A DNA stretch of 63,430 nucleotides, counting the filler, from Eremomyces bilateralis CBS 781.70 (lineage: Eukaryota), in assembly GCA_010015585.1 (NCBI GenBank). It is 16 parts of 16 records of this genome, joined end to end, with 100 filler letters (N's around TTAATTAATTAA, not from the genome) between each part and the next. Parts side by side here need not be neighbours in the genome. Positions count along the whole stretch, not along the records: positions 33,994 to 38,032 come from ML975224.1; positions 38,133 to 41,804 come from ML975225.1; 14 more parts are not named here. One strand, written 5' to 3'. Within the stretch, counting starts at the first letter, position 1. Each line of letters begins with the position of its first letter. The translations under genes and the position numbers were made by a program. This document shows positions 2,862 to 59,252 of this stretch, in pieces. The notes beneath the pieces were generated by a model. The model saw nothing but the letters and a program-made list of their open reading frames with translations. It was not told the DNA's origin and searched no databases.

Positions 2862-3565
2862 TGGTGAGGTCGCTAAGAAGTGCTTCTTCCAACTGCAATC
2901 GCTCAGCGGCCGAGTACTCGAAAAGTTGGAGCAAATGCCAACTGGCAGGTTCAACACCGTACCAGGACGCTGCCAAGGTAGAGATAGCTTTTCTATCACA
3001 GTGAAGTCGAAAATCTTCTACGTCCGTTTTCGCTAATGAAGCGCCGCCGACAAGATAGGCCTCTAAAATCCTGCAGTGCCGATAGCTGGGGCTATGCAGA
3101 CGGAAGGATTTTTCCTCAGCCTTGTCCTGCAACAAGGATATGGCCCATGTGATTTGACTGGTGACCAGCCCCAAAAGCCTACAGGGTAGATACCTGACGC
3201 ATGCAGAGTGAGGGATTTTTACTTATGGTGTCCTGCCACAAGAATTCGGCCGGTGTGATTTAACCGGAACCGGCCTCAATTATCGTACGACATGGCCTCA
3301 CCGGTCAGTAGTAAGAACCCGCCTTGAATCGCAGCCTTAATACCTAAAAGACCCTTCTGAACATTTGTTCGGTTCTTTTATCACATCTGCTTCAAGCGTG
3401 ACGAGGAGGTTTACTATCTCTTCTTGTTGGGTATGAGCTGGCATGAACCTATTCTGGTGGCCGTGAGGTCCGCGATCAGTCCCAGTGCCGACGCAACTTA
3501 ATTTCTCCTCCGATAATATTGGATTCGATTCCTTTTCAACTCTTTACTCTTGGATATATTTCACC

Positions 3566-5814
3566 ATGTCTGACGAAGACTATTCAAAGTTGAAAGACAA
3601 GGTAGCTGCCTCAGGGCAGGGGAAGACGGAAGAACCAAGTCCGAAAAACCACCACTCCAGATAACTTTAGAGTTAACCATTGCTAGATATCAAACATTCG
3701 GAAATTTCAATTCGGCAACAAGAGCCGAAAAGCGGAGGTCCGGCAATTATCACGGAGAAATCAGGAACTGTTCGCCCAGATAGACAGTTTCCAGAGTACG
3801 CCATGGTTATCCGGGACAAAATCAATGCCAAATACGAGCACCAAGGAACATTTCTCGAAATCCAATCATCGATTATGCAGGAAGCAATTCGAAGCGCCTT
3901 TAGTGAACACTCACAACTCGATGTTCGCGCGGACCCGATCATCTTTCAGAAGCCATATTATCCATTGTTTCAACGTCGAGACAAGATCAAAAAGATTGCG
4001 GAAGCCGCATTAACATCAAACGACGAAATGCGAAAGACGCATTTCAAATGGTTGCTGAAATTCATGGACGATAGTTTCCAGGAGCTGGAAATCATTCACA
4101 AGAGCCAGGTTGTGAAAGGTCTCATTGAATTTAAGCACGTCCAGATGATTTTTGCTAGTGGAGGCATTTTGGTTGGAGAGGAAAATGGACTTCAGGAATG
4201 TGTAATCTTACATGATATCAGTGACATTCTAGAAGATAAACAGAAGGGCGGCAATTACGTGAAACTCAGAGCTTTCAGATGGCAATACAACGGAACAATG
4301 TTTGGTCCTTCGCTCAAAAAGATCCGGTTGGATGAGTTTTCAGCAGCCCGGCAGATTACCGAGCTGGACTATTACCCTATTGAGGCTCTCTCGAAAGAAA
4401 AGAGGGAGAAGCTATTCGAGACATTGATCGAACGCGGTAAGAAGTGGTGCGAGACTGTCGAGGTTATAGATGGCAAGCATTACAAATACAACGGTAAGTA
4501 AGAGTATTTTCACGGCGCACAGATCGACTCTAATTTGTACTATAGGCGTTGTTCAAGTCCCAAGAAGGAATGTTAACAAGCCCTGGAAAATAGAACTTGT
4601 TCCAATACATGTAGGTCATTAAGTGACGTATCTCTACTGGAGGGATTAACGATTTCCAGGTATCCGGTCGCATCGTGTTAAGTCATGAATCATTCGTAGC
4701 CACATATCCTCGACTTGATGTTAGCCTTCATACAACAGCGCGTCGATCTCAGAATTATACCATCCAACCGCCAAAGCAAGAACAGGATGGTGAGCCGCTT
4801 GGTCTTCCTGAACTGGATATTTCAGAAGAGTCATGGATTCCAGAAGGCGACATCTGGAGCTGCGTGCCGAAAATGAACGGGGACGTTGAATTCGTACCAA
4901 GTCCGCTGCAAGCGTTAATCTGCCCTGCTTGGTCACCAGGATACAGCCTTTCCGAAAAAGAATGGGCGTATTTCGACATTAAGCGAGCCAAAGCTATTGA
5001 CTGGAAAGAAGACCCGATCCAGGAGCTTCAGCTCGATGACAACGAAAGGCAGATATTGGTTGATGTTGTTACGGAGCATCTGGAAAATGGAGCATTTCGT
5101 GATGTTGTTGGAGAGAAGGGACAGGGCTTGATTATTCTGCTTTACGGTCCTCCAGGATGTGGAAAGACTCTTACGGCAGGTGAGATGCAAATTGCGTGCG
5201 AATATTCCGAGATACAATTGTCTAACTACATAGTAGAGTTGATTGCAGAACAGAAGCGACGACCTCTTTTACGAATTTCTTGCGGTGATCTCGGCGAAGA
5301 TGCATGGCGTACGGACAGAGAACTTCATAACCTTCTCAAACTAGCACTGAAATGCTCCGCAGTCGTACTTATCGACGAAGCCGATGTATTCCTCTCAAAA
5401 AGAGCTGAAACCGGTACCGGCAATTACGACCACAATGGTCTTGTTGCGGTGTTCTTAAAACATCTCGAGTACTTTCCTGGCGTTATGTTTCTCACTTCGA
5501 ATCGAAAAGATGAGTTTGACGACGCGGCCGAATCTAGGATTCACATTCGTTTACAGTACGAGGCATTGGACGTTGATAGACAGGCAAATATCTGGAAATC
5601 GCATTTGAAGGGTTCTCATGTCCCTGAAGATTGGGATCTCGATGTTTGTCGAGAATTGGCAAGGAAGTACGACATCAACGGACGAGAAATCAAGAATTTG
5701 GTTCATGTTTCAACGGCTATCTGTCGGCAGAGAAACAGGAAGCTATCTATAAGCGATATTGAACAAGTGTATGCGTTGAGGCGCAAGCCAACTTCGAAGC
5801 CTATTCAGGTCTAA
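3566..5814 (+). CDS. AAA+ ATPase (fungal DUF7025-type N-terminus + AAA core + lid), ~680 aa; join(3566..3638,3687..4493,4546..4610,4660..5179,5237..5814)
   Basis: Walker A GPPGCGKT, Walker B VLIDEAD, TSNR sensor, SRIH arginine finger; four GT-AG introns restore one frame; the in-frame intron at 5180-5236 gives GKTLTAE. Confidence 0.85.
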
Positions 5815-6299: not shown

Positions 6300-6494
6300 T
6301 GTAAGAGTCTCACTGTCGGGAATCTCCAATCGTGAGGCAAACATTGAATTGTTGCTATGAAGGAGGAATCTATCTAAGGTGTGCGAGGCGTTTATCTGTT
6401 GTGAGGATGGATCACGTGACCATCAGTCACAGGAGACTTGGAACGAGTCTTGACAGACTCGAGGACTGCACATGACCCCGCTACTGCTAAGTCA
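6300..6494. mobile_element. Partial non-RIPped family A LTR (6300-6399) nested in the older copy, interrupted at ~6400 by another TG-starting repeat
   Basis: 6300-6399 matches the reverse complement of the family A LTR; similarity ends abruptly at TGTGAGGATGG. Confidence 0.7.
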
Positions 6495-6594
6495 NNNNNN
6501 NNNNNNNNNNNNNNNNNNNNNNNNNNNNNNNNNNNNNNTTAATTAATTAANNNNNNNNNNNNNNNNNNNNNNNNNNNNNNNNNNNNNNNNNNNN
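6495..6594. other. Artificial assembly linker (N run with central TTAATTAATTAA); first of 15
   Basis: Same 100-nt linker starts at 12739, 18700, 24425, 29676, 33894, 38033, 41805, 45116, 48405, 51585, 54313, 57017, 59253 and 61403. Confidence 0.98.
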
Positions 6595-6924
6595 CAGCCT
6601 TTATAAATAACGAGCTCTGGCATAGCTTACGCCTAAATTGATTAAAGAAAAAGATGATTAGGACGACGACCTTATTATATCATTAGATAGAGCGCTTAGT
6701 AGACTTCGCGTGTTTTAAAGGAGGGGGTAGTATGATAGATCAGAGGTCTATAGACCTAGATACCTTGTAGCCTTATGGCCCGTTTGCTCTACAGTATCAG
6801 GACATAACGCCTCGCACACTTTAGATAGATTCCTCCTTTATAGCAATAATTCAATATTTGCCTCACGATTGGAGGTTCCCTACAGTGAGACCCTTACACC
6901 TCCTAACCCCCCCTGAGATCGCAC

Positions 6925-9173
6925 TTAGACCTGAATAGGCTTCGAAGTTGGCTTGCGCCTCAACGCATACACTTGTTCAATATCGCTTATAGATAGCTTC
7001 CTGTTTCTCTGCCGACAGATAGCCGTTGAAACATGAACCAAATTCTTGATTTCTCGTCCGTTGATGTCGTACTTCCTTGCCAATTCTCGACAAACATCGA
7101 GATCCCAATCTTCAGGGACATGAGAACCCTTCAAATGCGATTTCCAGATATTTGCCTGTCTATCAACGTCCAATGCCTCGTACTGTAAACGAATGTGAAT
7201 CCTAGATTCGGCCGCGTCGTCAAACTCATCTTTTCGATTCGAAGTGAGAAACATAACGCCAGGAAAGTACTCGAGATGTTTTAAGAACACCGCAACAAGA
7301 CCATTGTGGTCGTAATTGCCGGTACCGGTTTCAGCTCTTTTTGAGAGGAATACATCGGCTTCGTCGATAAGTACGACTGCGGAGCATTTCAGTGCTAGTT
7401 TGAGAAGGTTATGAAGTTCTCTGTCCGTACGCCATGCATCTTCGCCGAGATCACCGCAAGAAATTCGTAAAAGAGGTCGTCGCTTCTGTTCTGCAATCAA
7501 CTCTACTATGTAGTTAGACAATTGTATCTCGGAATATTCGCACGCAATTTGCATCTCACCTGCCGTAAGAGTCTTTCCACATCCTGGAGGACCGTAAAGC
7601 AGAATAATCAAGCCCTGTCCCTTCTCTCCAACAACATCACGAAATGCTCCATTTTCCAGATGCTCCGTAACAACATCAACCAATATCTGCCTTTCGTTGT
7701 CATCGAGCTGAAGCTCCTGGATCGGGTCTTCTTTCCAGTCAATAGCTTTGGCTCGCTTAATGTCGAAATACGCCCATTCTTTTTCGGAAAGGCTGTATCC
7801 TGGTGACCAAGCAGGGCAGATTAACGCTTGCAGCGGACTTGGTACGAATTCAACGTCCCCGTTCATTTTCGGCACGCAGCTCCAGATGTCGCCTTCTGGA
7901 ATCCATGACTCTTCTGAAATATCCAGTTCAGGAAGACCAAGCGGCTCACCATCCTGTTCTTGCTTTGGCGGTTGGATGGTATAATTCTGAGATCGACGCG
8001 CTGTTGTATGAAGGCTAACATCAAGTCGAGGATATGTGGCTACGAATGATTCATGACTTAACACGATGCGACCGGATACCTGGAAATCGTTAATCCCTCC
8101 AGTAGAGATACGTCACTTAATGACCTACATGTATTGGAACAAGTTCTATTTTCCAGGGCTTGTTAACATTCCTTCTTGGGACTTGAACAACGCCTATAGT
8201 ACAAATTAGAGTCGATCTGTGCGCCGTGAAAATACTCTTACTTACCGTTGTATTTGTAATGCTTGCCATCTATAACCTCGACAGTCTCGCACCACTTCTT
8301 ACCGCGTTCGATCAATGTCTCGAATAGCTTCTCCCTCTTTTCTTTCGAGAGAGCCTCAATAGGGTAATAGTCCAGCTCGGTAATCTGCCGGGCTGCTGAA
8401 AACTCATCCAACCGGATCTTTTTGAGCGAAGGACCAAACATTGTTCCGTTGTATTGCCATCTGAAAGCTCTGAGTTTCACGTAATTGCCGCCCTTCTGTT
8501 TATCTTCTAGAATGTCACTGATATCATGTAAGATTACACATTCCTGAAGTCCATTTTCCTCTCCAACCAAAATGCCTCCACTAGCAAAAATCATCTGGAC
8601 GTGCTTAAATTCAATGAGACCTTTCACAACCTGGCTCTTGTGAATGATTTCCAGCTCCTGGAAACTATCGTCCATGAATTTCAGCAACCATTTGAAATGC
8701 GTCTTTCGCATTTCGTCGTTTGATGTTAATGCGGCTTCCGCAATCTTTTTGATCTTGTCTCGACGTTGAAACAATGGATAATATGGCTTCTGAAAGATGA
8801 TCGGGTCCGCGCGAACATCGAGTTGTGAGTGTTCACTAAAGGCGCTTCGAATTGCTTCCTGCATAATCGATGATTGGATTTCGAGAAATGTTCCTTGGTG
8901 CTCGTATTTGGCATTGATTTTGTCCCGGATAACCATGGCGTACTCTGGAAACTGTCTATCTGGGCGAACAGTTCCTGATTTCTCCGTGATAATTGCCGGA
9001 CCTCCGCTTTTCGGCTCTTGTTGCCGAATTGAAATTTCCGAATGTTTGATATCTAGCAATGGTTAACTCTAAAGTTATCTGGAGTGGTGGTTTTTCGGAC
9101 TTGGTTCTTCCGTCTTCCCCTGCCCTGAGGCAGCTACCTTGTCTTTCAACTTTGAATAGTCTTCGTCAGACAT
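6925..9173 (-). CDS. AAA+ ATPase, duplicate of 3566-5814
   Basis: Identical mirrored ORFs 6925-8064 and 8238-9059. Confidence 0.8.
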
Positions 9174-33893: not shown

Positions 33894-33999
33894 NNNNNNN
33901 NNNNNNNNNNNNNNNNNNNNNNNNNNNNNNNNNNNNNTTAATTAATTAANNNNNNNNNNNNNNNNNNNNNNNNNNNNNNNNNNNNNNNNNNNNCAATTA

Positions 34000-36132
34000 G
34001 TGGTAGACGCCTCGAAGAAGCAGCAATGGCATCCTGTGGCATTTTTCTCACGAAAGATGATCCCAGCGGAACGTAATTATGATACCCACGACCATGAGAT
34101 GCTTGCAATTGTCTCGTCGTTTAAGCACTGGCGTCACTACCTTGAAGGTGCCAAGTACAAGGTTGAGGTGCTTACGGATCATAATAATCTCCGTTACTTC
34201 ATGACAACCAAAGAGTTGACTAGAAGGCAAGCTCGTTGGGCAGAATGGCTCTCTGCCTTCGACTTTCAGCTCACCTACCGGCAAGGGAAGCTGAATCCGG
34301 CCGATGCCCCATCCCGTCGGCCGGATTACCTTAAAGAGGCCCAAAAGGGTCGACAAGGTGAAGACGAGACGCTCGACGGAGTGCTCGCGTCGCTTCAGCG
34401 CCAGTTGGCGTCTCCCCAGAGTGAAGGCACTCCACTAGGGATATCTGAAGCATATCTTGCAGCATTCAGTGTTGCTGAGGAAGAGGAAGCGCAACCTCAT
34501 ACCTCTCCTATCCAGTACGTGGGAACAGGCGCGCCTGGACAGGAAACGACATATATGCCGTCAGACTCGGTTTCTAGTGCTATCGTAAGTGCCATGGGCA
34601 CTGATCAGTACGCAGAAGAGCTGCGCAAGTCCATAGAGGCAGATGCCACGCAGTTAGAGCCTGATAGCAGTCGGAGTCGGAGCATCGCTGCCATTCAGAA
34701 GCGATGGCGGGTCGATGGAGACTTTCTCCGCTATTGCGACCGTATATACGTCCCAGCGGGCGAAATACGGTTGCGAGTACTCCATCAGTGTCATGACGAT
34801 CCTCTTTCAGGCCATTTCGGATTCACAAGGACGTTTGAGCTCCTTAGCCGGACATTCTGGTGGCCAGGGATGCGTGCATACACAAAAGATTACGTCAAGT
34901 CTTGTGAGGCCTGCGCGAGAGCCAAAGCGCCACGGAAGAAGACCTTTGGGGTCCTAAAGGCACTGCCTATTCCTACCAAGGCCTGGTGCGACATTGCACT
35001 CGACTTTATCACAGACTTGCCGCCTTCTAAGTGCAGAGGGCGGACGTATGACTCTGTTCTCGTCATAATTGATCGGTTCACAAAGATGGCACATTACATA
35101 CCCGCAACAAAGACCATAAAAGCCCCCGAACTAGCTGAAGAGTTCATTTGGGAGATCATACGCTTACATGGAGTGCCAAAAACAATCGTTTCGGACCGCG
35201 GACCACTGTTCACGGGTGGGTATTGGAGCAATTTCTGTTACCACCTCAGCGTTAGGTGCAAATTCTCTACAGCATACCACCCACAGACAGACGGCCAGAC
35301 CGAAAGACAGAATCAGACGCTCGAGCAGTATCTTCGCTGTTATTGTTCCTATGAACAGGACGATTGGGCAGTACATTTACCCCTTGCGGAGTTCGCTTAC
35401 AATGATTCAGTTCATGCTACTACCGGGATGACACCATTTGTGGCGAACAATGGTCAACATCCGCGACGAGGGGAAATGCCCGGCGAACGGTACCAAAAGG
35501 GTATCAATGTACCTGCTGCAGATCGAGCGGAACGCATTCTCAGCCTCCAGAAGGCTATGCGTGAGAATCTGGTTAGGGCAGTCGAAAGCCACGCCAGAGG
35601 GTACGACAAGACCCATCAAGATCATCGTTTTGCCATTGGAGATAAGGTTTACCTTGCAACAACCAACATTAACACGACAAGACCATCCAAGAAGCTTGAC
35701 TATAAGCAAATTGGCCCCTACGAGATCACGGAGGTGGTCAGTAGTCATGCTTATCGCCTGAAGCTGCCAAAGACGCTCCAAATCCACGATGTGTTCCATA
35801 TTTCACTCTTGCACCCGCATTACGCTGCGAAGGACACGGATAGGGCGCAAAAGGCACCGACGCAGATCGTTTCGCAGGACACGGAGGACACGTATGTGGT
35901 TGAGGAAATCTTAGAGAAGAAACAAGACGGTATGGGTCGTTGGACGTATCTGATCAAGTGGAAGGGCTATGATGAGTCCGAAAACACTTGGGAACCAGCC
36001 GAACATATCTCCAAGTCGGCTATGGCAGCCTTTGAGCGCCGAATGGGCCTAAGGGGGTCCAAAAGGAAGCGTCAAGAGCCAGAGGCTGCTAAAGGACCAC
36101 CAAAGAAGCGTGGCAGACCGCGTAAGGCATGA
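34000..36132 (+). CDS. Pol, 5'-partial: RNase H, integrase, chromodomain, AT-hook
   Basis: PVAFFSRK..ERNY..E, HDDPLSGH..CEAC, LDFI, SDRG, GQTER, GPY, YLIKWKGYDESENTWEP, KKRGRPRK. Confidence 0.95.
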   Translation: MVDASKKQQWHPVAFFSRKMIPAERNYDTHDHEMLAIVSSFKHWRHYLEGAKYKVEVLTDHNNLRYFMTTKELTRRQARWAEWLSAFDFQLTYRQGKLNPADAPSRRPDYLKEAQKGRQGEDETLDGVLASLQRQLASPQSEGTPLGISEAYLAAFSVAEEEEAQPHTSPIQYVGTGAPGQETTYMPSDSVSSAIVSAMGTDQYAEELRKSIEADATQLEPDSSRSRSIAAIQKRWRVDGDFLRYCDRIYVPAGEIRLRVLHQCHDDPLSGHFGFTRTFELLSRTFWWPGMRAYTKDYVKSCEACARAKAPRKKTFGVLKALPIPTKAWCDIALDFITDLPPSKCRGRTYDSVLVIIDRFTKMAHYIPATKTIKAPELAEEFIWEIIRLHGVPKTIVSDRGPLFTGGYWSNFCYHLSVRCKFSTAYHPQTDGQTERQNQTLEQYLRCYCSYEQDDWAVHLPLAEFAYNDSVHATTGMTPFVANNGQHPRRGEMPGERYQKGINVPAADRAERILSLQKAMRENLVRAVESHARGYDKTHQDHRFAIGDKVYLATTNINTTRPSKKLDYKQIGPYEITEVVSSHAYRLKLPKTLQIHDVFHISLLHPHYAAKDTDRAQKAPTQIVSQDTEDTYVVEEILEKKQDGMGRWTYLIKWKGYDESENTWEPAEHISKSAMAAFERRMGLRGSKRKRQEPEAAKGPPKKRGRPRKA

Positions 36133-36418
36133 GAACTCTTTCCCTCCTTTTTCCCCACGAAGGGTTTTTTGGAAGGGTTTTAGCGAGCTCATGGTGCGAT
36201 TGTCACGTTTGGTCCTTTGGGCACTGATGAACCTATTCTGCCAAGATCACCTGGATCAGAAGAGAAGTATGAGGTCCCATTTGCCCAGAAGGCTACGCTA
36301 TGCTATGTTTCGCTAAGCTATGCCGCTAATAACATGAGTTTCGACCTACCGCCATCGCAGTGGCGCGTTTCGAATCGTACTCTACCCGATGGTACCTTTG
36401 GGTACCAACTCCACCTGT

Positions 36419-37459
36419 CTACTCCTCCTCAGTATCAGGAATGACGAAAGGCCTATCATCGCCAGAATCCTGGGCTTCACCATCCACAGCAGTGGATTTG
36501 AAGAGCTGACCAGCGAAATTCGACTTTCTGGCCTTGAAATGGTTGAACGAATGGCTTCCATCGTCTTCTTCAACAACCTGAATGACACCTTTCGTGGAGA
36601 GACGGAGGTTCAAGGCGCTGAAGGTGCCGGAAAGTCCCTTTTGGACCCGCTTGAACCATCGTTGGTGCTTCTCGAGGTGAGACGAGTGGTTGACAAGTTG
36701 AATCTCCGCCACGGCAAGCCTTTGCTTCAAATCCAGCAGCTCTGCGTTCGTCTCGAGAGCCATCGCGTTTATGTGGTCCATCTTAGCAACGAGTGCGTCC
36801 TATGGGATCCTATTAGCATCGAAACCACCAAGATCGCATGGAATGACTCACAATGTCCATCTTCTTCCTCTTCCTATCCTTTTGTGGCTTGGAGAGTGGA
36901 GTCAAAACACCAGGAACCGATGTGCCGCTATGAAGGCGCCAAACGCCAAAGATGCGCGTGTTCCGGCCTTGCAAGCCATCGTACATCTCTCGAATGGTGT
37001 TGAAGGCTCTCGCAGGTACCGGTTGGTTAAGTTCGATCGCAGTTCGGACCGCAAGGACGAAAGGAGCAAGCGATTTCCAAAGACTGGACTCAATCTCCAA
37101 CAATTAGCACTCGCCTAAATTGAAAGGGCACAAAGAGGTCAACAATGTACCTGAACACATTGATTGCCTGCTCTCGCAAGGCAATTCCCACATCGAGCTG
37201 TCGCCGTCGTCGCTGCATGCTCCGAAGGAGCAGGGAAACGGCACAACTCCCAGTCGTTGGGATCCTCAAGAGTCGCAAGAGACCGCAAGCACTCATAACA
37301 TGGGAAAGTGCATGGCTTCTGAGTCTTGGCGGACTTGATCCCAGCTTCGCGGAACCCTTTGCTTCGCGCAGCCGGAGAGTAGGGGACAGCAGTACCGTCA
37401 CCGTCGTCAGAGTCAGAATCAGACTTGGACGCGATCTGCTGGCGCGGAAGGGATGACAT
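36419..37459 (-). CDS. Antisense 3-exon gene inside the chromovirus, 310 aa (Zn-cluster-like, NLS, coiled coil); complement(join(36419..36799,36852..37094,37151..37459))
   Basis: Phase-0 introns GTACAT..GCTAAT..GAG (56 nt) and GTGAGT..GCTAAT..TAG (52 nt) join three ORFs into a stop-free frame. Confidence 0.75.
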
Positions 37460-39337
37460 CACGACTAGAAAGCGTCAGCTAGACCAGAAATGGATCTTTT
37501 GGACCTGAATGCACCAATGCAGGGCTTCCTGGTACATTGGGACCTTACCGGTTTTTCGGGTCCAAATGGGTCCAAACGGATCAAGTGGGTCGAAATGGTC
37601 AAAACGGAATTCAAGAAAAAGTGGACTGAAGTGTTTTTGGCAAGTGCAACCGGGTGCCAAGACTCTGCTTACATAGGCAGAATTTTCTACAAGTTTCAGG
37701 AATTCTTACCTTTTAACACAGTCATTTGGGCATCACCGAAATTTCTTGGGCTGTTCGGGACGAGCAACCCCTAGAAAGGGGGTATTGTGAAGATTCACTA
37801 TCTGCATGAGCCATTTGGGCCCTTTGGGCCCAGGTCGGATTATCTTTCATCCTTACCCCGCTTTTGAGGTATATAATGCCCCGCACGAATCCTACCAACT
37901 CTCAACGGTAGCGATTCGCGCTGTTACACATTACACGATTACATACAATACAAATACGTTGATACAGACTTCTTGATCTATTCAGTTGCCTACAGCAATC
38001 CAATATCACCCAGGACTACCAATCCTTGACAGNNNNNNNNNNNNNNNNNNNNNNNNNNNNNNNNNNNNNNNNNNNNTTAATTAATTAANNNNNNNNNNNN
38101 NNNNNNNNNNNNNNNNNNNNNNNNNNNNNNNNATGGCTGCTCCCAGATGAAATTCGAGTCGAGTTGGCTCGACATCCTTATGCTCCGCTCCTAAGCACGT
38201 CTGAGGTAAAATGGGGGAGAGGATCTCGAGGACAAGAGTTGGAGGAGACTCTCCGGGACATGGACGATGGCGCAGCATACGCAGTCCGATTTCGAGCCTT
38301 TATGGTGGAGAATGCCGCCAGATTCCGGGAAGAGTCACAGAAATTGAATGCCACGAAAAGTCAGAAGAAACGACCAATGGGTTAGAGCGGCGTCGGCCGC
38401 CGAATCATCACCCGGAATTGCTCCAGACTCGAGCTCTTCTTGCCAAACGGCCACAACCAAGGGCCCGCCTTCATTGTCAATGTCTGCTCTTGGTGTATTC
38501 GCGCGAACAAGACAGAACGACATGGAAACTAGTGGAGATGGAAGAAACGAAAAGGAAAGTAAGACGGAGGAAGCGAGCAGATACTGTTGACACAATCAGA
38601 ACGATTGACCAAAGTGATGTTGTATCACCGATACAACGACGACGTTTGTAAACGTTGCCAAGATCTAATGGAGTGTGTTCTTAGCAAAGCCTACTATGGG
38701 ACAGCCGGAGAGACAGCCAGAGGGAATATTCACTGCATCAGATGGCGAAAACGAGTATGGGGATGATGCAGATGATAACGAGGATGATAATGATCCCCAG
38801 GAAACAGATGAGGAAGTTTTTGTCACTTTAGAGCCTCTGGATTTTGACAAATAATCCTTATTTATTGTTGCATACAAATCGTTGCACCTTTTGTACAAAA
38901 AGTAGCCAGACGGGCTGAAGCCCTGAAACCTTACTGCGAATTTATTCCTTAGTAATCATCGAGGGCTTGGCACGTCTGGTATAACGAGATAATCACCTGA
39001 CTTCAGTGTGTTGGGTCACGTGGTTTGTGTTTGCTCGGAGATGTCTATCTCTATCTCTTCACGCTGTATTTTAGATACATCCAATACATCGCTCTTCTCT
39101 CTCATACGTTATCTTTGCTCGATTGGAGTATTCTCCACAGAATCAATCACGTAACTAGTTAACTATAGATGTTAATAGTCAATATAGTCACGTAACTGTC
39201 ACTTTAGGGGAATTCATCCGCCACCTGACAAGCTCCGTGATTCCAGACCATTATACAAAGCATGTAGCGGCTACTTGGAAAGCGCCGATTTGAGTAGACA
39301 CGGGCAAGCGCCCCACTACTCGCTGCTGGTCGGATCC

Positions 39338-50470: not shown

Positions 50471-51290
50471 TGTGAGGAAGGCTTAGTAGAGGGCTCCCGC
50501 TAGATTCGCGGGTCCGAGGCTCGTATGTATTTAAGTTATCTTCATCTGGCTACTAGCTAGATCTCTTTTCCTAGACAATGGGAATCGTTAATACCAATTT
50601 GCGTTATGACTCTACAGTAACTGAGCTTAAGCAGCAATCGTGCTTAATCATCATACCCGCATAAATGCAACAATTCCCCACATGGGCCTCGCAGAGAGGC
50701 CCGACGGGCGTATGAATCTCTCTCTCTCTGTCAAGGTTAGCTAGTCCTGGGTGATATTGGATTGCTGTAGGCAACTGAATAGATCAAGAAGTCTGTACCA
50801 ACGTATTTGTATTGTATATAATGGTGTAAATGTGTAACAGCGCGAATCGCTACTGTGATGGATCAGAGGTCCGCAGACCTGGATGCCTTGTGGCCTTGTG
50901 GCCCGTTTGCTCTGTAAACACCAGAATAGATAAACGCCTCGCACACCTTAGATAGATTCCTCCTTCATAGCAACAATTCAATGTTTGCCTCACGATTGGA
51001 GATTCCCGATAGTGAGACTCTTACACTTTATTGCTATCTTCTCTATAAGTATTTACTTATTCGGAATATATTAATTGATTGAGAATCATTGAAATTAGTA
51101 GTTCAGTACTCTGATTAGTCACGCTATAACTAGGACCTATCGAAAGAAAGACCTATAAAGAACCGGAATTACCGAACCGACAAATCAAGATATTAGAACC
51201 CTATCGATCCTTATCGGCGTATAGATCGGCTGAACAAGAATCGGAATTCGAGCCGCAGGCTCAGCAAGAGATACAAGATATAGGCCTTGT
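50471..51290. mobile_element. TE nest: family C LTR (50471-50672), LINE-like tail (50674-50728), partial family B LTR on - strand (50729-50853), family A 5' LTR (50854-51025) and RIPped internal sequence
   Basis: Each piece matches another copy in the window; right boundary approximate. Confidence 0.8.
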
Positions 51291-51684: not shown

Positions 51685-54312
51685 TAATGGCTGTTGGTAG
51701 CAAGTGGTATGGAATGTAGTGCTTAATCATCATAGCTGCCACTGTCTCTCCTTCCATATCTTTACAGGGGATAAAGATCGCGCCTTTGCCTAACCTGTCA
51801 ACAATCGTAAGGAGGTGTCGGTTTCCTGAGCGCGTTTTTGGAAGGTCAACGACAAAGTCTATAGAGATTTCGCTCCAGATTCTTAACGGAACCGGCAGGG
51901 GCCGGAGTAGGCCTTGTTTTCGATCTCTCCATACTGTGTTCCTTCCGCAGGACTGACAGTTCCTTACAAAACGACGAACGTCCTCGTGAAACTTAGGCCA
52001 GAAGTACTTCCTTGACAGGATGCTAATCATGCCTTCCATCCCGGGGTGCCCTATTAAGCGCGAGTCGTGACTTTCCTAAAGGATGCTTATTCGCAACGGT
52101 TCACTCTCTAGTACCCAATATCTCCCGCGATAGAGTAGAAACCCGTTTTGTACCCGTAGATCAGACATAGACTTCTTCAGGCCTCGATACTCTTCGGGGG
52201 CATATCGTTCACCCTTTTCTAATGCTAACTTAAACGCTTGGTAAACTTTGTCTCCCTCAACTGAGGCATTCCATAGCTCTTGTAACGATTCCGATGGTGC
52301 GGGTTAGGGCACAGCTTCTAGTTGCACTGGCGCTACTCGTACGATTAGGTCGCTCGGAATTAACTGCGCGACTCTCCCTTGGAGACGTTCGTCGCTACTG
52401 TCTTATAGGACATCTTTATCCTTCCGGGAGAGTACGTCGGCAACAGCATTTAGGCGGCCTAGTCGGTATTCGATATTAAATAAAAAGCGGGAAAGGAATG
52501 TCATCCACCTTGCTTGTCGTTCAGATAGCTTCCTCTCCTGCATGAAGTACTGGAGGTTTCGATGATCGGTCCTAACTTTCAAAGGACAACTGGTTAGCCA
52601 GTCTTGGTGCTCTTCTAAGCCCGTGATAATGGCCAACAGTTCCTTGTCGTGAATCGGGTAGTTACACTCGGCAGAGTTTAGCTTCCGTGACGAGTAGCCG
52701 ACGGGTCGAAGCATCCCTTGGTCGTCATGTTGGTAAACTGCTGCTCCTAACGCCCAGCCTAAGCAATCGCAGTCTAGAATTGTTTCCTTTCCGTCTTCCC
52801 ACATCTTCAAAAGTGGTACTTTGGCAAACGCTTGTTTCAAAAGCTCGAAACCCCGTAAAGCTTCTTGGTCCATCTTAAAAGGGAGCTCTTGCTTAGACTT
52901 CTTCGTTAGGTTATTCAAAGCTATCGCTAGCTCAGAGTAGTCTTTGATAAACCCTCGGTAGAAGTTCGCGAAACCAAGGAATCCGCGTAGGCCTCGGAGA
53001 GTCTTTGGAGCTTCCCAATTCAAGATCGCCGCGACTTTCTCTGGGTCCATAGAGATTCCCTTCCCAGCTTCGACAATGAAACCTAAGTACTTAACTCGTT
53101 GGGTATAGAACTCGCACTTGGTGATATCGACTTGTAGACCTACAGTCCTCAGGCGCTCCAAGACCATGCGGACTTGTTTCTTGTGTTCCGCCAAGGAACC
53201 GTCCGTGTAGATCAGAATGTCGTCGACGTACACGGATACAAACCAGTCTAAAAACTCGCGTAACGTGTAGTTGACGAAGCGTTGGAAAGTGCTTGGCGCT
53301 CCGGCTAGTCCGAAAGGCGTCACTAGGAACTCATAGAGTCCATACCGGGTTCGAAAGGCTGTCTTCCACTCGTCTCCTTCGGCTATTCTGATCTTGTTGA
53401 AAGCTACGATGATGTCTAGCTTCGTGAACCATTTTACTTCGCTTACTTAGCTCAGGGTTTCCCTGATCAGAGGCAACGGGTAACGATCCTTCCTCGTTCT
53501 CTCGTTAAGACCTCGATAGTCGACGCAGAATCGGAGGCCACCCCCTGGCTTCGTGACGAATAAGACAGGGGCCGCTGCTGGGGAATGGCTGACTCGAATA
53601 AAACCTTTCTCGAGGAGCTCGGTCAAGGTTTTCCGTAGGACAAGTAACATTTCTCTCGACATGGAATAGAGCGGTCCCCATAGCGCTTCTATTTCTTTCC
53701 CATCTTGGTCCTTAAGTAGTTTAATCCGGTGGTTAACCCTAGGTCGGGAAGGGGGGAGTTTGTCTGCTTTCATTCGATTAAACACGTCTTTAAGATCCAT
53801 AAGATCCGGGGGAAGGTAATCTTCGATCTTGACTTCTTTCTTCCCTTGTAGGGCTTTCTCGATATCAGCCATCGATACTACGAACACTCGTGTTGGTTCT
53901 TTTCTGTACTTCTTTGTGGCGTGCGCGAAGGACACCGATGAAATCTGTCTAATCTCTTTCGCAAACTTCCGGAGTTTAGGAGTGTCTAACTGCTTAACGG
54001 AGACGCCAGTTCTTTCGATATACAAAGTCCCCGTCTATGCGTTCGTGTAGGCTCGTTCGTTCTCTAGCCAAGGAGTGCCTAGGATCATCTAGTGCTCTCC
54101 TGCTATCTTGGGGACAATGTAAAGGAAAATCTTCCCCGATGGTGTTCGTGCTGATTAAGACCCTCTAATATCTAATGAATCCAGTATTACACACTCTGTG
54201 ATCTTATTCTTTAATAACTCTTCGAATCCTAATACCCCGATAGGTTCAGGGAGGGTAAACCTGTCAAGCTTCAATCGCCTTATAACTCTTTCTTCGATCA
54301 GTCTATAAGATT
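51685..54312 (-). mobile_element. Ty3/Gypsy pol fragment (PR end, RT, RNase H, IN) with RIP-type stops
   Basis: [40 protein letters not shown]. Confidence 0.92.
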
Positions 54313-54412: not shown

Positions 54413-56650
54413 TAGCTGTTAGTAGCAAGTGGTATGGAATGTAGTGCTTAATCATCATAGCTGCCACTGTCTCTCCTTCTATATCTTTACAGGGGATAAA
54501 GATCGCGCCTTTGCCTAACCTGTCAACAATCGTAAGGAGGTGTCGGTTTCCTGAGCGCGTTTTTGGAAGGTCAACGACAAAGTCTATAGAGATTTCGCTC
54601 CAGATTCTTAACGGAACCGGCAGGGGCCGGAGTAGGCCTTGTTTTCGATCTCTCTATACTGTGTTCCTTCCGCAGGACTGATAGTTCCTTACAAAACGAC
54701 GAACGTCCTCGTGAAACTTAGGCCAGAAGTACTTCCTTGATAGGATGCTAATCATGCCTTCCATCCCGGGGTGCCCTGTTAAGCGCGAGTCGTGACTTTC
54801 CTGAAGGATGCTTGTTCGTAACGGTTCACTCTCTAGTACCCAATATCTCCCGCGATAGAGTAGAAACCCGTTTTGTACCCGTAGATCAGATATAGACTTC
54901 TTTAGGCCTCGATACTCTTCAGGGGTATATCGTTTACCCTTTTCTGATGCTAAATTGAACGCTTAGTAAACTTTGTCTCCCTTAACTAAGGCATTCCATA
55001 GCTCTTGTAACGATTCCGATGGTGCGGGTTGGGGCATAGCTTCTAGTTGCACTGGCGCTGCTCGTACGATTAGGTCGCTCGGAATTAACTGCGCGACTCT
55101 CCCTTAGAGACGTTCGTCGCTACTGTCTTATAGAACATCTTTATCCTTCCGGGAGAGTGCGTCGGTAATAGCATTCAGGCGGCCTGGTCGGTATTCGATA
55201 TTAAATGAAAAGCGGGAAAGGAATATTATCTACCTTGCTTGTCGTTCAGATAGCTTCCTCTCCTACATAAAGTACTAGAGGTTTCGATAATCGGTCCTAA
55301 CTTTCAAAGGACAACTGGTTAGCTAGTCTTAGTACTCTTCCAAGCCCGTGATAATGGCCAATAGTTCCTTGTCGTGAATCGGGTAGTTATACTCGGCAGG
55401 GTTTAGCTTCCGTAACGAGTAGCCGACTGGTCGAAGTATCCCTTGGTCGTTATGTTGGTAAACTGCTGCTCCTAACGCCTAGCCTGAGCAATCGCAGTCT
55501 AGAATTGTTTCCTTTCCGTCTTCCCATATCTTCAAAAGTGGTACTTTGGCAAACGCTTGTTTTAAAAGTTCGAAACCCCGTAAAGCTTCTTGGTCTATCT
55601 TAAAAGGGAGCTCTTGCTTAGACTTCTTCGTTAGGTTATTTAAAGCTATCGCTAGCTTAGAGTAGTCTTTGATAAACCCTCGGTAGAAGTTCGCGAAACT
55701 AAGGAATCCGCGTAGGCCTCGGAGAGTCTTTGGAGCTTCCCAATTCAAGATCGCCGCGACTTTCTCTAGGTCTATAGAGATTCCCTTCCCAGCTTCGATA
55801 ATAAAACCTAAGTACTTGACTCGTTGGGTGTAGAACTCGCACTTAGTGATATCGACTTGTAGACCTGCAGTCCTCAGGCGCTCCAAGACCATGCGGACTT
55901 GTTTCTTGTGTTCCTGTCAGGGTACGAAGAATGAGGCAAAACTCTGTGATTCGTGATATACTAGAATAAATCTACAAAGGGGGAAGAAGGATCTAAAATA
56001 CAATCCGCTGTGTGAGGGAGTGATAAGTAGGCCTTGGGGGTGAACATAACACATCGTAAGGCCACAAGGCACCCACACCCCCAGGCATCAAACTGAATTC
56101 AGTCTTCGTTCCTTCACAGTTCCGCCAAGGAACCGTCCGTGTAGATCAGAATGTCGTCGACGTACACGGATATAAACCAGTCTAAAAACTCGCGTAACGT
56201 GTAGTTGACGAAGCGTTGGAAAGTGCTTGGCGCTCCGGCTAGTCCGAAAGGCGTCACTAGGAACTCATAGAGTCCATACCGGGTTCGAAAGGCTGTCTTC
56301 TACTCGTCTCCTTCGGCTATTCTGATCTTGTTAAAAGCTGCGATGATGTCTAGCTTCGTGAACCATTTTGCTTCGCTTACTTAGCTCAGGGTTTCCCTGA
56401 TCAGAGGCAACGGGTAACGATCCTTCCTCGTTCTCTCGTTAAGACCTCGATAGTCGACGCAGAATCGGAGGCCACCCCCTGGCTTCGTGACGAATAAGGT
56501 AGGGGCCCCTACTAGGGAATGGCTGACTCGAATAAAACCTTTCTCGAGGAGCTCGGTCAAGGTTTTCCGTAGGATAAGTAATATTTCTCTCGACATGGAA
56601 TAGAGCGGTCCCTATAGCGCTTCCATTTCTTTCCTATCTTGGTCCTTAAG
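54413..56650 (-). mobile_element. Second, more RIPped copy of the same Gypsy pol with nested insertions
   Basis: Colinear with 51688-53717; differences mostly C>T/G>A. Confidence 0.92.
55915..56118. mobile_element. Solo LTR (family E, 204 bp), TSD GTTCC, inserted in RT
   Basis: TGTCAG...TTCACA; empty site GTTCC seen once in the contig-12 copy (~53185). Confidence 0.92.
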
Positions 56651-57016
56651 TGTGAAGATTCACTACCTGCATGAGCCATTTGGGCCCTTTGGGCCCAGAT
56701 CGGATTATCTTTTATCCTTACCCCGCTTTTGAGGTATATAATACCCCGCACGAATCCTACCAACTCTCGACGGTAGCGATTCGCGCTGTTACACATTTAC
56801 ACGATTACATACAATACAAATACGTGGATACAGACTTCTTGATCTATTCAGTTGCCTACAGCAATCCAATATCACCCAGGACTACCAATCCTTGACACTC
56901 GAATCGCTCTTCTTGGCTGTACAACGCTGAGCAGAGTAGAGAATGTCTGACAACACCATCAATCCCCGGGAGACAAGGGCCACTAGGGCTAGCAGGGCCC
57001 AAGCGGCCTCTGAAGA
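56651..57016 (+). mobile_element. Family B 5' LTR (56651-56897), self-priming PBS and probable gag start (ATG 56943)
   Basis: CGAATCGCT just after the LTR is complementary to AGCGATTCG within it; frame MSDNTINPRETRATRAS open to the contig end. Confidence 0.85.
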
Positions 57017-57116: not shown

Positions 57117-57435
57117 TACCACAGTCATTTGGGCATTACCCAAATTTCTTGAGCTGTTCGGGACGAGCAGCCCCTAGAAAGGGGGTATTGTGAAGATTCA
57201 CTACCTGCATGAGCCATTTGGGCCCTTTGGGCCCAGATCGGATTATCTTTTATCCTTACCCCGCTTTTGAGGTATATAATACCCCGCACGAATCCTACCA
57301 ACTCTCGACGGTAGCGATTCGCGCTGTTACACATTTACACGATTACATACAATACAAATACGTTGATACAGACTTCTTGATCTATTCAGTTGCCTACAGC
57401 AATCCAATATCACCCAGGACTACCAATCCTTGACA
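57117..57435 (+). mobile_element. Family B 3' end: PPT and 3' LTR (57189-57435) abutting 28S rDNA
   Basis: Matches ~37718-38031. Confidence 0.92.
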
Positions 57436-59252
57436 GACAGTCAGATTCCCCTTGTCCGTACCAGTTCTAAGTTGGTTGTTAAGCGTGCGCCGGACGGCCG
57501 AAGCCTGCCAAGGGCGTCCGCCCGCGGGTGCTGGAAGGCGCCGGCCCGAAGGCTAGTGCCGACCTGCTCCCGGGGGTTCGGCCCAAGGCCCAACGCACCC
57601 AACCCTTAGAGCCAATCCTTATCCCGAAGTTACGGATCTTTTTTGCCGACTTCCCTTACCTACATTGTTCTATCGACTAGAGGCTGTTCACCTTGGAGAC
57701 CTGCTGCGGTTATGAGTACGACCTGGCGTGAAAGCTATTCCCTCCCGCGGGTTTTCAAGGGTCGTCGGAAGCGCACCGGACCCCGCAGAAGCGCGGGGCT
57801 CTTCCGGCCATGGAACCCTATCTCCGGACAAACCGATTCCAGGGTGATGGGCCGTTAAAAAGAAAAGAGAACTCTTCCCAGGGCTTCCGCCGACGTCCCC
57901 GCGATCGTTTGCGTTGCCGCGTAAAGCCCACATCCAGGTGCCGGAATATTAACCGGCTTCCCTTTCGGCCGACGGCGCGAGCGCGCCTTTGAAACGGAGT
58001 TTCCCTATGCCTTAGGATCGACTAACCCGTGTCCAACTGCTGTTCACACGGAACCTTTCCCCACTTCAGTCTTCAACGTTCTCAGTTGAATATTTGCTAC
58101 TACCACCAAGATCTGCACTAGAGACGGTTCAACGCGGGCTCACGCCCTACGCTTCGACACGCATCTCCACGCCTGCCTACTCGCCAGGGCATCGAATCTA
58201 CCCTGGCGGCGGGGTATGGGTAGCACGCTTGAGCGCCATCCATTTTCGGGGCTAATACATTCGACCGGTGAGTTGTTACACACTCCTTAGCGGATTCCGA
58301 CTTCCATGGCCACCGTCCGGCTGTCTAGATGTATTAACACCCTTTGTGGTGTCTGATGAGCGTGCATTCCGGCACCTTAACCCCGCGTTCGGTTCATCCC
58401 GCATCGCCAGTTCTGCTTACCAAAAATGGCCCACTAGCAACGTTACATTCGGAGGGGCGCGTGCACTTAAGTCACAAAACCCGTCTCACATATTTAAAGT
58501 TTGAGAATAGGTGAAGGCCGTTTCGGCCCCCGAGCCTCTAATCATTCGCTTTACCTCATGAAACTGAACTCGTTGCTGCTATCCTGAGGGAAACTTCGGC
58601 AGGAACCAGCTACTAGACGGTTCGATTAGTCTTTCGCCCCTATGCCCAGATTTGACGATCGATTTGCACGTCAGAACCGCTGCGAGCCTCCATCAGAGTT
58701 TCCTCTGACTTCACCCTATTCAGGCATAGTTCACCATCTTTCGGGTCCGACCACCTACGCTCTTCCTCAGATCCATCCGTAAACTTCAGGACCGGGCGAT
58801 GCTGCAACAACGGTCGCACCTTGATCACTTTCATTCCGCGCACGGGCTTAACACCCGAACACTCGCGTAGTTGGTCGACTCCTTGGTCCGTGTTTCAAGA
58901 CGGGCCGCTAACGACGATTAAGCCCGCATCCGAGCGAACGCGTGCCTCGGTCCGGGCGGGCGGTATTGCACCACGGCTATAACACCCCCCGAGGGGGGCC
59001 ACATTCCGTTGGCGTTTCTCCCGCCGCCCAAACCGATGCGGGCCAACGCGACCGCGTGCCCGGGGCAGAAGCCCCGGTGAGCGGCCGCGATAAGTCTCAT
59101 CGCTAGCGCTTCCCCTTTAACAATTTCACGTGCTGTTTCGATTCCTTTCCAAGATGCTTTTCATCTTTCGATCACTCTACTTGTGCGCTATCGGTCTCGG
59201 GCCAATATTTAGCTTTAGAAGAAATTTACCTCCCATTTTGAGCTGCATTCCC
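57436..59252 (-). rRNA. 28S (LSU) rRNA, partial (D1/D2 region to domain IV)
   Basis: Conserved GGTCCGTGTTTCAAGAC (LR3), TCCTGAGGGAAACTTCG (LR5) and TACTACCACCAAGATCT (LR7) sites on the + strand. Confidence 0.97.

Follow-up and report, generated by a model that had tools for sequence, protein, structure and literature searches.

Structure of an Antisense Gene between pol and the 3' LTR of a Chromovirus

We analyzed a 63,430-nt stretch of DNA from Eremomyces bilateralis CBS 781.70 (assembly GCA_010015585.1), hereafter the window, in which 16 contigs are joined end to end in order of falling length (6,494 to 1,928 bp) by 15 N44-TTAATTAATTAA-N44 spacers across 6495-61502; genes on either side of a spacer are thus not genome neighbors. 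The seventh contig (33994-38032, 4,039 bp) carries the 3' part of a Ty3/gypsy chromovirus and, in the segment between the pol stop codon and the 3' long terminal repeat (LTR), a gene on the opposite strand that is the subject of this study. Because the contig begins inside RNase H, the element seen here is a contig-limited fragment. Its pol frame (33994-36132, plus strand) runs without interruption from the first base of the contig up to a stop codon at 36130-36132, and Pfam places RT_RNaseH (1.3e-29), Integrase_H2C2 (2.5e-22), rve (6.4e-8), SH3_Tf2-1 (5e-19) and Chromo (1.4e-13) along it in that order, so that the succession of RNase H, integrase and a C-terminal chromodomain identifies the host element as a Ty3/gypsy chromovirus. 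The element also has the ends of an LTR retrotransposon: its LTR has TG..CA termini and is found again ahead of a gag-like start, and a polypurine tract precedes the 3' LTR. The 3' LTR (37786-38031, plus strand, 246 bp) contains two copies of TTTGGGCC in tandem at 37814-37830, with a TATATAAT box further on at 37870, and it stops one base short of the contig end; the polypurine tract, read in the sequence, occupies 37774-37783 on the plus strand.

The limits of the LTR (TG..CA, 246-247 bp) were set by two further copies in the window, at 56651-56897 and 57189-57435. The former (plus strand, 97.2% identity over 247 bp) has unrelated DNA before it and a leader and a gag-like ATG at 56945 after it, and is for this reason a 5' LTR. 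The latter belongs to a second copy of the 3' end (57117-57435, plus strand) that adjoins large-subunit (LSU) ribosomal DNA (rDNA) and consists of the last 72 bp of the segment, a polypurine tract with identical letters (57177-57186) and the LTR; the stretch 37714-38032 matches 57117-57436 with 96.6% identity over 320 bp. A preliminary description of this DNA, made from the sequence alone, had pointed to a recurrence of about 70 bp before the LTR at 57117-57188 and to 1.65 kb between the pol stop at 36132 and the tract and 3' LTR. Both statements hold, with 72 bp common to the second copy and a gap measured at 1,653 bp (36133-37785). In related metagenome chromoviruses where both the pol stop and the LTR could be placed, the corresponding gap is 227 bp (locus L018), 268 bp (L010), 575 bp (L013) and 1,178 bp (L008).

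On the minus strand of the segment, three open reading frames (ORFs; 37459-37151, 37094-36852 and 36799-36419) can be linked in phase 0 to give 310 codons followed by a TAG stop, a coding frame that lies between the pol stop and the 3' LTR and runs antisense to gag-pol. Followed in its own direction, the gene starts with an upstream noncoding exon, the presumed antisense promoter region (37549-37785), which holds a tandem TTTGGACC pair at 37559-37576. A 5' leader intron of 84 nt comes next (37465-37548; GTAAGG...GCTGAC...TAG), with its acceptor 5 nt before the ATG. The start-codon exon (37151-37464; ATG at 37459-37457; 103 codons) is joined through intron 1 (37095-37150; 56 nt, phase 0, GTACAT...GCTAAT...GAG) to coding exon 2 (36852-37094; 81 codons), at the end of which stands a basic cluster, KDRKRKK. 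Intron 2 (36800-36851; 52 nt, phase 0, GTGAGT...GCTAAT...TAG) contains three listed variant places and leads to coding exon 3 (36419-36799; 126 codons and the TAG), with a long heptad-patterned helix and then an acidic tail. The stretch from the antisense stop to the pol stop (36133-36418), with 6 variant places in 286 nt, is the presumed 3' untranslated region and terminator. The three ORFs, the phase-0 introns of 52 and 56 nt and the 310-residue frame had been proposed in the preliminary description at these same coordinates and are confirmed in the sequence; the leader intron was absent from that prediction.

Evidence for Splicing and Probable Expression of the Antisense Gene

The segment is found in four public sequencing runs (X1-X4), which come from three studies and carry two organism labels. 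X2 and X3 are DNA runs with the same organism label as X1, X4 is a DNA run with another label, and X1 is taken to be RNA by guess and not from its record. All run data are de Bruijn contigs (k=31) that were placed on the whole 4,039-bp contig. X1 contains two full joints, 37094>37151 (56 nt skipped, depth 1,033) and 37464>37549 (84 nt skipped, depth 1,821), both with CT..AC ends, that is, GT..AG on the minus strand; the second of them sets the 5' limit of the start-codon exon at 37464. Moreover, an X1 contig stops at 36799 and then continues with 16 letters identical to 36852 onward. Two of these three junction signals coincide with junctions that were predicted beforehand from sequence alone, so that the splicing foreseen in the preliminary description is recovered for intron 1 as a full joint, which is the stronger evidence, and for intron 2 as a 16-letter loose end, which is the weaker. 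Neither joint nor the loose end was seen in the contigs of the three DNA runs, of which X4 leaves approximately 37016-37216 and 37639-37773 uncovered.

Summed contig depth in X1 is 1,912 (at 36802) and 1,948 (at 37138) in the introns, 3,414-4,233 in the exons and approximately 1,045 in pol; in X2 and X3 the intron, exon and pol depths are about equal. Because intron depth in X1 is about half of exon depth and the depths in X2 and X3 are even, the depth agrees with splicing. X1 covers both pol and the antisense region, and its summed contig depth, a coarse measure, climbs to values above 7,000 around 36289-36423, from approximately 1,045 in pol. The antisense gene is probably expressed. The leader intron would place the start of the transcript at or beyond 37549, either in the 3' LTR itself or no more than approximately 240 bp away from it. 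This fits the antisense promoter that had been proposed near the 3' LTR.

It is also seen that pol is represented in X1 by one 4,014-nt contig of a single variant, which reaches 1,784 nt further upstream than the window contig, and that both variants of the antisense gene (see below) are present in X1 at about equal depth. If X1 is RNA, sense RNA is made from one copy only and the antisense gene is expressed from both copies.

Membership of the Segment in the Element and Purifying Selection on Its Frame

Both edges of the segment are bridged by contigs of the public runs. An X1 contig (33994-36223) and an X4 contig (34741-36223) cross from pol over its stop into the segment, and a further X1 contig (37627-37815) crosses from the segment into the LTR. 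In X2 and X3 the DNA depth of the segment is like that of pol and the LTR is 4-8 times deeper, which indicates that solo LTRs or further LTR copies exist. The G+C content of the segment (0.51) is close to that of pol (0.52). In the DNA runs, minor alleles at approximately 40-50% run through pol, the segment and its last 72 bp alike, and those at 37716, 37734, 37738 and 37749 are the exact letters of the second copy at 57117-57188. There are therefore two internal-region variants in the genome, both with the segment. No direct or inverted repeats, target-site duplication or nested insertion bounding the segment were found at its edges; a target-site duplication of the segment's own is what the preliminary description had set against its view that the segment is element-borne. 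That view is upheld by the bridged edges, the pol-like depth and the 72 bp in the second copy. These results show that, in both variants, the antisense gene is an internal part of the element, bounded by the stop codon of pol and the polypurine tract.

A comparison of synonymous and nonsynonymous change across copies had also been proposed. Among the listed variant places, to which all counts here refer (3 further places are not shown), 7 of the 9 differences between the two variants within the coding sequence (CDS) are synonymous, and the two nonsynonymous ones are I194M and A82T. The binomial P ranges from 0.0008 (23% synonymous sites) to 0.008 (33%, transitions only), and the crude pN/pS is 0.09. 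As a control, unspliced frames on either strand reach at most 6 synonymous changes of 13. The CDS is also less variable than the rest of the segment (9 variants in 930 nt vs. 19 in 720 nt; P = 0.012, Fisher's exact test); the 3' flank accounts for 6 of the 19 noncoding places, the two coding introns for 4 and the leader region for 9. Both listed indels of the segment (37497 and 37600) are noncoding, and no stop-creating variant was found among the listed places. In pol, the 8 listed variant places divide into 4 synonymous and 4 nonsynonymous changes. The 310-codon frame is thus under purifying selection at the protein level.

The Encoded Protein

All 7 cysteines of the predicted protein fall in residues 50-101, with the spacing C-x3-C-x2-C-x15-C-x16-C-x2-C-x7-C. 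The preliminary description had listed the pattern Cx2Cx15Cx16Cx2Cx7C and the basic cluster KDRKRKK, and both are present, the former at residues 54-101 with a seventh cysteine at 50, the latter beginning at residue 175 at the end of exon 2. The N-terminus before the cysteine module is acidic and Ser-rich. For exon 3, AlphaFold2 predicts a single helix over its residues 2-69, with a predicted local distance difference test (pLDDT) score of 84-95 across the first 50, and 74% of the a/d positions are hydrophobic in one heptad register. This agrees with the heptad-rich C-terminus that had been reported; the tail that follows is acidic and poorly modeled.

The canonical spacing of a Zn2Cys6 cluster is Cx2Cx6Cx5-16Cx2Cx6-8C, and in Gal4 six cysteines in two CxxC-containing halves are followed by a long dimerization helix. 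The present protein is similar to this plan in having six cysteines in two CxxC halves and a long helix downstream, yet it is not a member of the family. Zn(II)2Cys6 (PF00172) was rejected because the first loop has 15 residues and not 6 and because exon 1 gives no Zn_clus hit at E<=10; the earlier wording "Zn-cluster-like" can thus stand for a resemblance only, the spacing being outside the canonical range. A second candidate, DUF3716 (PF12511), was also rejected: it gives no Pfam hit at E<=10, and the only lead to it comes from the Atlas, where 28% of the proteins in one cluster (rank 7, score 0.80) have DUF3716. In the available portion of one source, DUF3716 proteins are described as accessory genes of a Zymoseptoria DNA transposon (PMC8232023). 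As for bZIP, there is no Pfam hit on the separate exon peptides; the basic cluster is located at the end of exon 2, and the helix belongs to the first part of exon 3.

Database searches, which covered each exon peptide on its own and hence domains contained within a single exon, detected almost no relatives. Pfam shows no family on any exon peptide at E<=1, and for exon 1 this holds up to E<=10. When exon 1 was used in word-index searches, there were 85 candidates among longer proteins, none at E<=0.01, and 2 candidates among proteins of near length, neither significant. An exhaustive phmmer search with exon 3 against 1.84 billion representatives returned two hits, of which one is real: P0004, a protein of 116 aa (E 3e-8; BLASTP identity 35% over 81 residues) that has the motifs KHQRW and DSGDD in common with exon 3. 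The other, of 1,046 aa, is a low-complexity repeat protein and was judged spurious. A metagenome scan with the alignment of exon 3 and P0004 yielded 164 pattern matches, none of which was confirmed. TBLASTN with the three exon peptides found nothing below E 0.18 in 29 chromovirus loci (described below) and nothing below E 0.24 in the other 15 contigs of the window. A sequence search of the PDB gave nothing for exons 1 and 2; with the alignment of exon 3 it returned a single chain (E 0.45), which was disregarded. The Atlas offered sub-threshold leads only (0.88 and 0.77). Judged by its sequence, the protein is an orphan with one remote partial relative.

Antisense Genes in Other Chromoviruses

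A metagenome scan with the integrase-chromodomain part of pol yielded 29 loci, whose best segments are 26-76% identical to it; in the 19 longer matches the identity is 26-44%. When all six frames of these loci and of the window were searched with a loose six-cysteine pattern, only three matches were obtained, the present gene and one each in L008 and L012, and all three are antisense to pol and just downstream of it. In L008, the pol stop is at 6523 and the LTR starts at approximately 7701; the antisense gene (6443-7056, minus strand, ATG near 7056) encodes Cx2Cx7Cx8Cx2Cx7C, followed by an intron of approximately 55 nt with a TTCTAAC branch site and then by a coiled coil. The antisense gene of L012 (667-1349, minus strand) encodes Cx2Cx6Cx8Cx2Cx6C and has the same layout. 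These two genes are homologs of one another (E 1e-8 and 3e-4). By TBLASTN, their family occurs in 2 of the 29 loci but is absent from the window. Its database relatives number 20, none of them with a Pfam domain, and two are uncharacterized proteins of Bionectria ochroleuca. Several of these relatives bear misleading automatic names (efflux pump subunit, Holliday junction resolvase-like, aminopeptidase), and prokaryote-style gene calls read through the intron of genes of this type.

The L008 and L012 genes are similar to the present gene in their place, in the antisense strand, in an intron right after the cysteine module and in the helix or coiled coil that comes next. The proteins differ, however: those of L008 and L012 have approximately 190-240 aa and a near-canonical cysteine spacing, whereas the present protein has 310 aa, long loops (x15/x16), an extra exon of 81 residues and a seventh cysteine. 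Common descent of the three genes with fast divergence is possible. Long stop-free minus-strand frames (159-266 codons) between the pol stop and the next LTR are also seen in L013 (10883-11359), L005 (2001-3899) and L014 (2002-2496). None of them contains the cysteine pattern, and those of L013 and L014, which were scanned, have no Pfam hit; they could be further accessory genes or chance frames.

Comparison with Known Antisense Genes of Retroelements

Antisense accessory genes are a kind already known. In the available portions of the sources, Boty-like (BcGypsy1) elements of Botrytis and Sclerotinia, with gag, reverse transcriptase (RT), integrase (IN) and CHROMO domains, are described as carrying an antisense gene, brtn, between pol and the 3' LTR, and brtn is said to be missing from the current B05.10 annotation (PMC7264820, PMC8365987, PMC4227169). 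The present gene is like brtn of Boty in belonging to a fungal chromodomain Ty3/gypsy element and in lying antisense to gag-pol between pol and the 3' LTR, a likeness drawn from position and orientation without sequence comparison, and it adds junction-level splicing evidence and a between-copy selection test. The primary paper on brtn is reportedly that of Zhao et al. 2011 (Virology 417:248). In the fungal literature searched, brtn was the sole described antisense accessory gene found, and the literature search returned no paper that joins LTR retrotransposon, antisense and Zn2Cys6.

A more distant counterpart is HBZ of human T-cell leukemia virus type 1 (HTLV-1), whose first exon is spliced and whose product has nuclear signals and a zipper at its C-terminus. 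It is likewise a minus-strand protein gene near the 3' LTR of a retroelement, but host, element family and cysteine module differ and the two do not belong to one family. The 3' LTR of HTLV contains an antisense promoter, according to the portion of PMC7264820 at hand. The same portion describes plant antisense open reading frames (aORFs) between pol and the 3' LTR in maize Grande (gene23), rice RIRE2, Silene Retand and Phaseolus PvRetro13, ascribes to gene23 of Grande its own promoter and a nuclear product, and takes conservation of the aORFs across copies as a sign of function while naming no function for them (PMC7264820). Compared by description, these genes have the same position and orientation as the present one and also encode orphan proteins; unlike it, they reside in plant elements of non-chromovirus lineages, and Retand, for instance, is described as non-chromovirus in the part of PMC11963269 available. 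The aORF-3R class calls for a coding frame that is present in most copies and conserved like the proteins of the element, and this is what is observed here, in a small sample of two variants. The present gene belongs to the aORF-3R class (Vicient and Casacuberta 2020), and it is an intact and unusually well-supported member.

Other Retroelement Sequences in the Window

Directly next to the LTR of the second copy (57189-57435), Rfam identifies a eukaryotic LSU rRNA, encoded on the minus strand, with 1,291 bits (window 57189-59252). The join lies near position 2,300 of 3,401 in the model, which places this copy in or beside 28S rDNA. In one X1 contig, the sequence before the LTR start presumably resembles small-subunit rRNA. 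The adjacency to rDNA could reflect targeting to rDNA chromatin or an effect of assembly or chimera formation. A partial LTR (50728-50856, minus strand) corresponds to the 3' half of the LTR studied here, with 93.8% identity over 129 bp, and has unrelated DNA before it and a short GA repeat after it; it is probably truncated or interrupted. Contigs 12 and 13 (51686-52705 and 54429-55430, minus strand) contain pol fragments of another gypsy family, approximately 30% identical to the studied pol over approximately 385 residues. Since the fragment of contig 13 lies upstream of the 5' LTR of the studied family, the elements are nested or adjacent there.

Evaluation of Alternative Explanations

Taken together, the joined frame, the X1 junctions, the bridged edges and the selection signal argue for a real, element-borne, spliced and protein-coding accessory gene of a fungal Ty3/gypsy chromovirus, a reading to which we assign a probability of roughly 0.7. 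Several points weigh against it. No complete element lies within the window, and the letters of gag, protease and RT are not seen. Intron 1 has an unusual GAG acceptor and GTACAT donor. The RNA label of X1 is a guess, and its contigs give no strand, transcript ends or true expression level. The shorter sides of the junction contigs have only 23, 26 and 16 letters, below the 30 that would be preferred, and reads were placed at 90% likeness; such short sides are what a k=31 graph yields when spliced and unspliced forms coexist. Only two variants are visible, so that the selection test comprises 9 places, and the two could be alleles rather than transposed copies. On the protein side, translation of the frame is a prediction, as are the function, nuclear location, metal binding and oligomer state of the product. 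Exon 1 alone is poorly modeled by AlphaFold2 (mean pLDDT 57), the cysteine module matches no family, and the comparison with the L008 and L012 proteins gives a BLASTP E of 0.22 or none and hhalign probabilities of 2.4% and 0.2%.

Four other explanations were considered. The segment might not belong to the element at all, if a truncated pol, a host gene and an unrelated solo LTR lay side by side or had been misassembled. The contig is only 4 kb long and ends at the LTR, and solo LTRs do exist, as the 4-8 times higher LTR depth in X2 and X3 indicates. However, the polypurine tract stands directly before the LTR, the 72 bp, tract and LTR recur together in the second copy beside a different flank (rDNA), the same joins are rebuilt from runs of three studies and two organism labels, and variant alleles of approximately 40-50% pass alike through pol, the segment and the last 72 bp, so that this explanation is extremely improbable. 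A segment inside the element could still be a passenger, that is, a captured host gene or part of one that is still expressed and has no role in the element life cycle. Its ordinary fungal introns, its own leader intron and the lack of a match to any retroelement family in Pfam would suit such an origin. But no host paralogue was detected: the word-index searches with exon 1 gave none, exon 3 has one partial relative of 116 aa in 1.84 billion representatives, and the other 15 window contigs hold no relative. Moreover, an antisense capture with intact promoter and introns cannot pass through element RNA, purifying selection is seen across both variants, and analogous genes occupy the same place in other chromovirus lineages. 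We therefore regard a mere passenger as unlikely.

The remaining two explanations concern the transcript. The junctions of X1 might derive from DNA, namely from a processed, intron-less retrocopy in the genome of that strain; this would suit the guessed RNA label and the total of approximately 30 million letters in X1 contigs, which is like a fungal genome. Against it, depth in X1 is uneven (pol approximately 1,045, exons 3,400-4,200, introns approximately 1,900) whereas the DNA runs with the same label are flat, X1 has one variant of pol but both variants of the gene, and a retrocopy would still require that spliced mRNA had existed. A retrocopy is thus very unlikely. It is also conceivable that the antisense RNA itself is the product, which would pair with genomic RNA or feed silencing, the long ORF being incidental. 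The available part of PMC7264820 discusses several retroelements whose antisense transcripts have been proposed to be regulatory, and sense and antisense RNA may coexist here, X1 covering both pol and the antisense region. However, 7 of the 9 variants in the CDS are synonymous and variation is lower there than in the introns and the leader, which points to selection on the protein and not on an RNA duplex; in addition, a frame of 310 codons is kept across two introns and all cysteines fall in one module. We consider it improbable that the RNA is the sole product, and a role of the RNA and a role of the protein do not exclude each other.

Possible Function and Implications

If the segment is a protein-coding accessory gene, as we favor, its antisense orientation also bears on how its introns persist. 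Introns antisense to the genomic RNA are invisible to the splicing of that RNA and therefore come through every cycle of reverse transcription unchanged, which allows an ordinary spliced fungal gene to reside in the element. The transcript would start from its own promoter, in the approximately 240 bp beside the 3' LTR or inside the LTR. The seven-cysteine module probably binds metal, KDRKRKK is probably a nuclear import signal, by the classical consensus for such basic clusters, and the helix of approximately 70 residues probably pairs as a coiled coil. The product would then enter the nucleus as an oligomer and regulate the transcription or chromatin state of the element, either by activation or by copy-number control. 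By analogy with HBZ and GENE23, a nuclear regulator, which the preliminary description had pictured as a trans-activator, silencing antagonist or targeting factor, is a plausible role, although the combination of own promoter, metal-binding module, nuclear import, coiled coil and regulatory function is tentative and falls somewhat short of even odds.

Candidate target sites may be found in the element itself. The motif TTTGGRCC, a post hoc choice among the repeats detected, is present at 16 places in the window where 3.7 would be expected, a number attained in none of 100 shuffles. Of these places, 12 belong to the studied element family. A tandem pair is located in the U3 region of each LTR (37814-37830, 56679-56695 and 57217-57233), approximately 45 bp upstream of the TATA box, and a tandem pair of opposite orientation lies in the antisense leader at 37559-37576. 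Such pairs could be sites for a dimeric factor, whichever protein that may be. A broader and rather doubtful conjecture is that many fungal chromovirus lineages encode an oligomeric and sequence-specific antisense nuclear factor, which here would bind the TTTGGRCC pairs in U3 and in its own leader. This would create a two-promoter switch between sense transcription (transposition) and antisense transcription (restraint or latency), an independently evolved fungal counterpart of Tax/HBZ built from fast-diverging proteins with a cysteine module.

The relatives of the L008 and L012 genes are unannotated or stand under misleading automatic names, which is a warning for annotation. For plants, the portion of PMC7264820 available states that none of the antisense accessory genes of LTR retrotransposons has been assigned a function. 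The copy described here stands apart from most cases of the kind in that it is intact, comes from a low-copy family with two variants and combines junction-level evidence for introns and a leader with a selection signal at the protein level. It is thus a practical entry point for asking what antisense accessory genes do, and it could show whether fungal retrotransposons regulate themselves like complex retroviruses.

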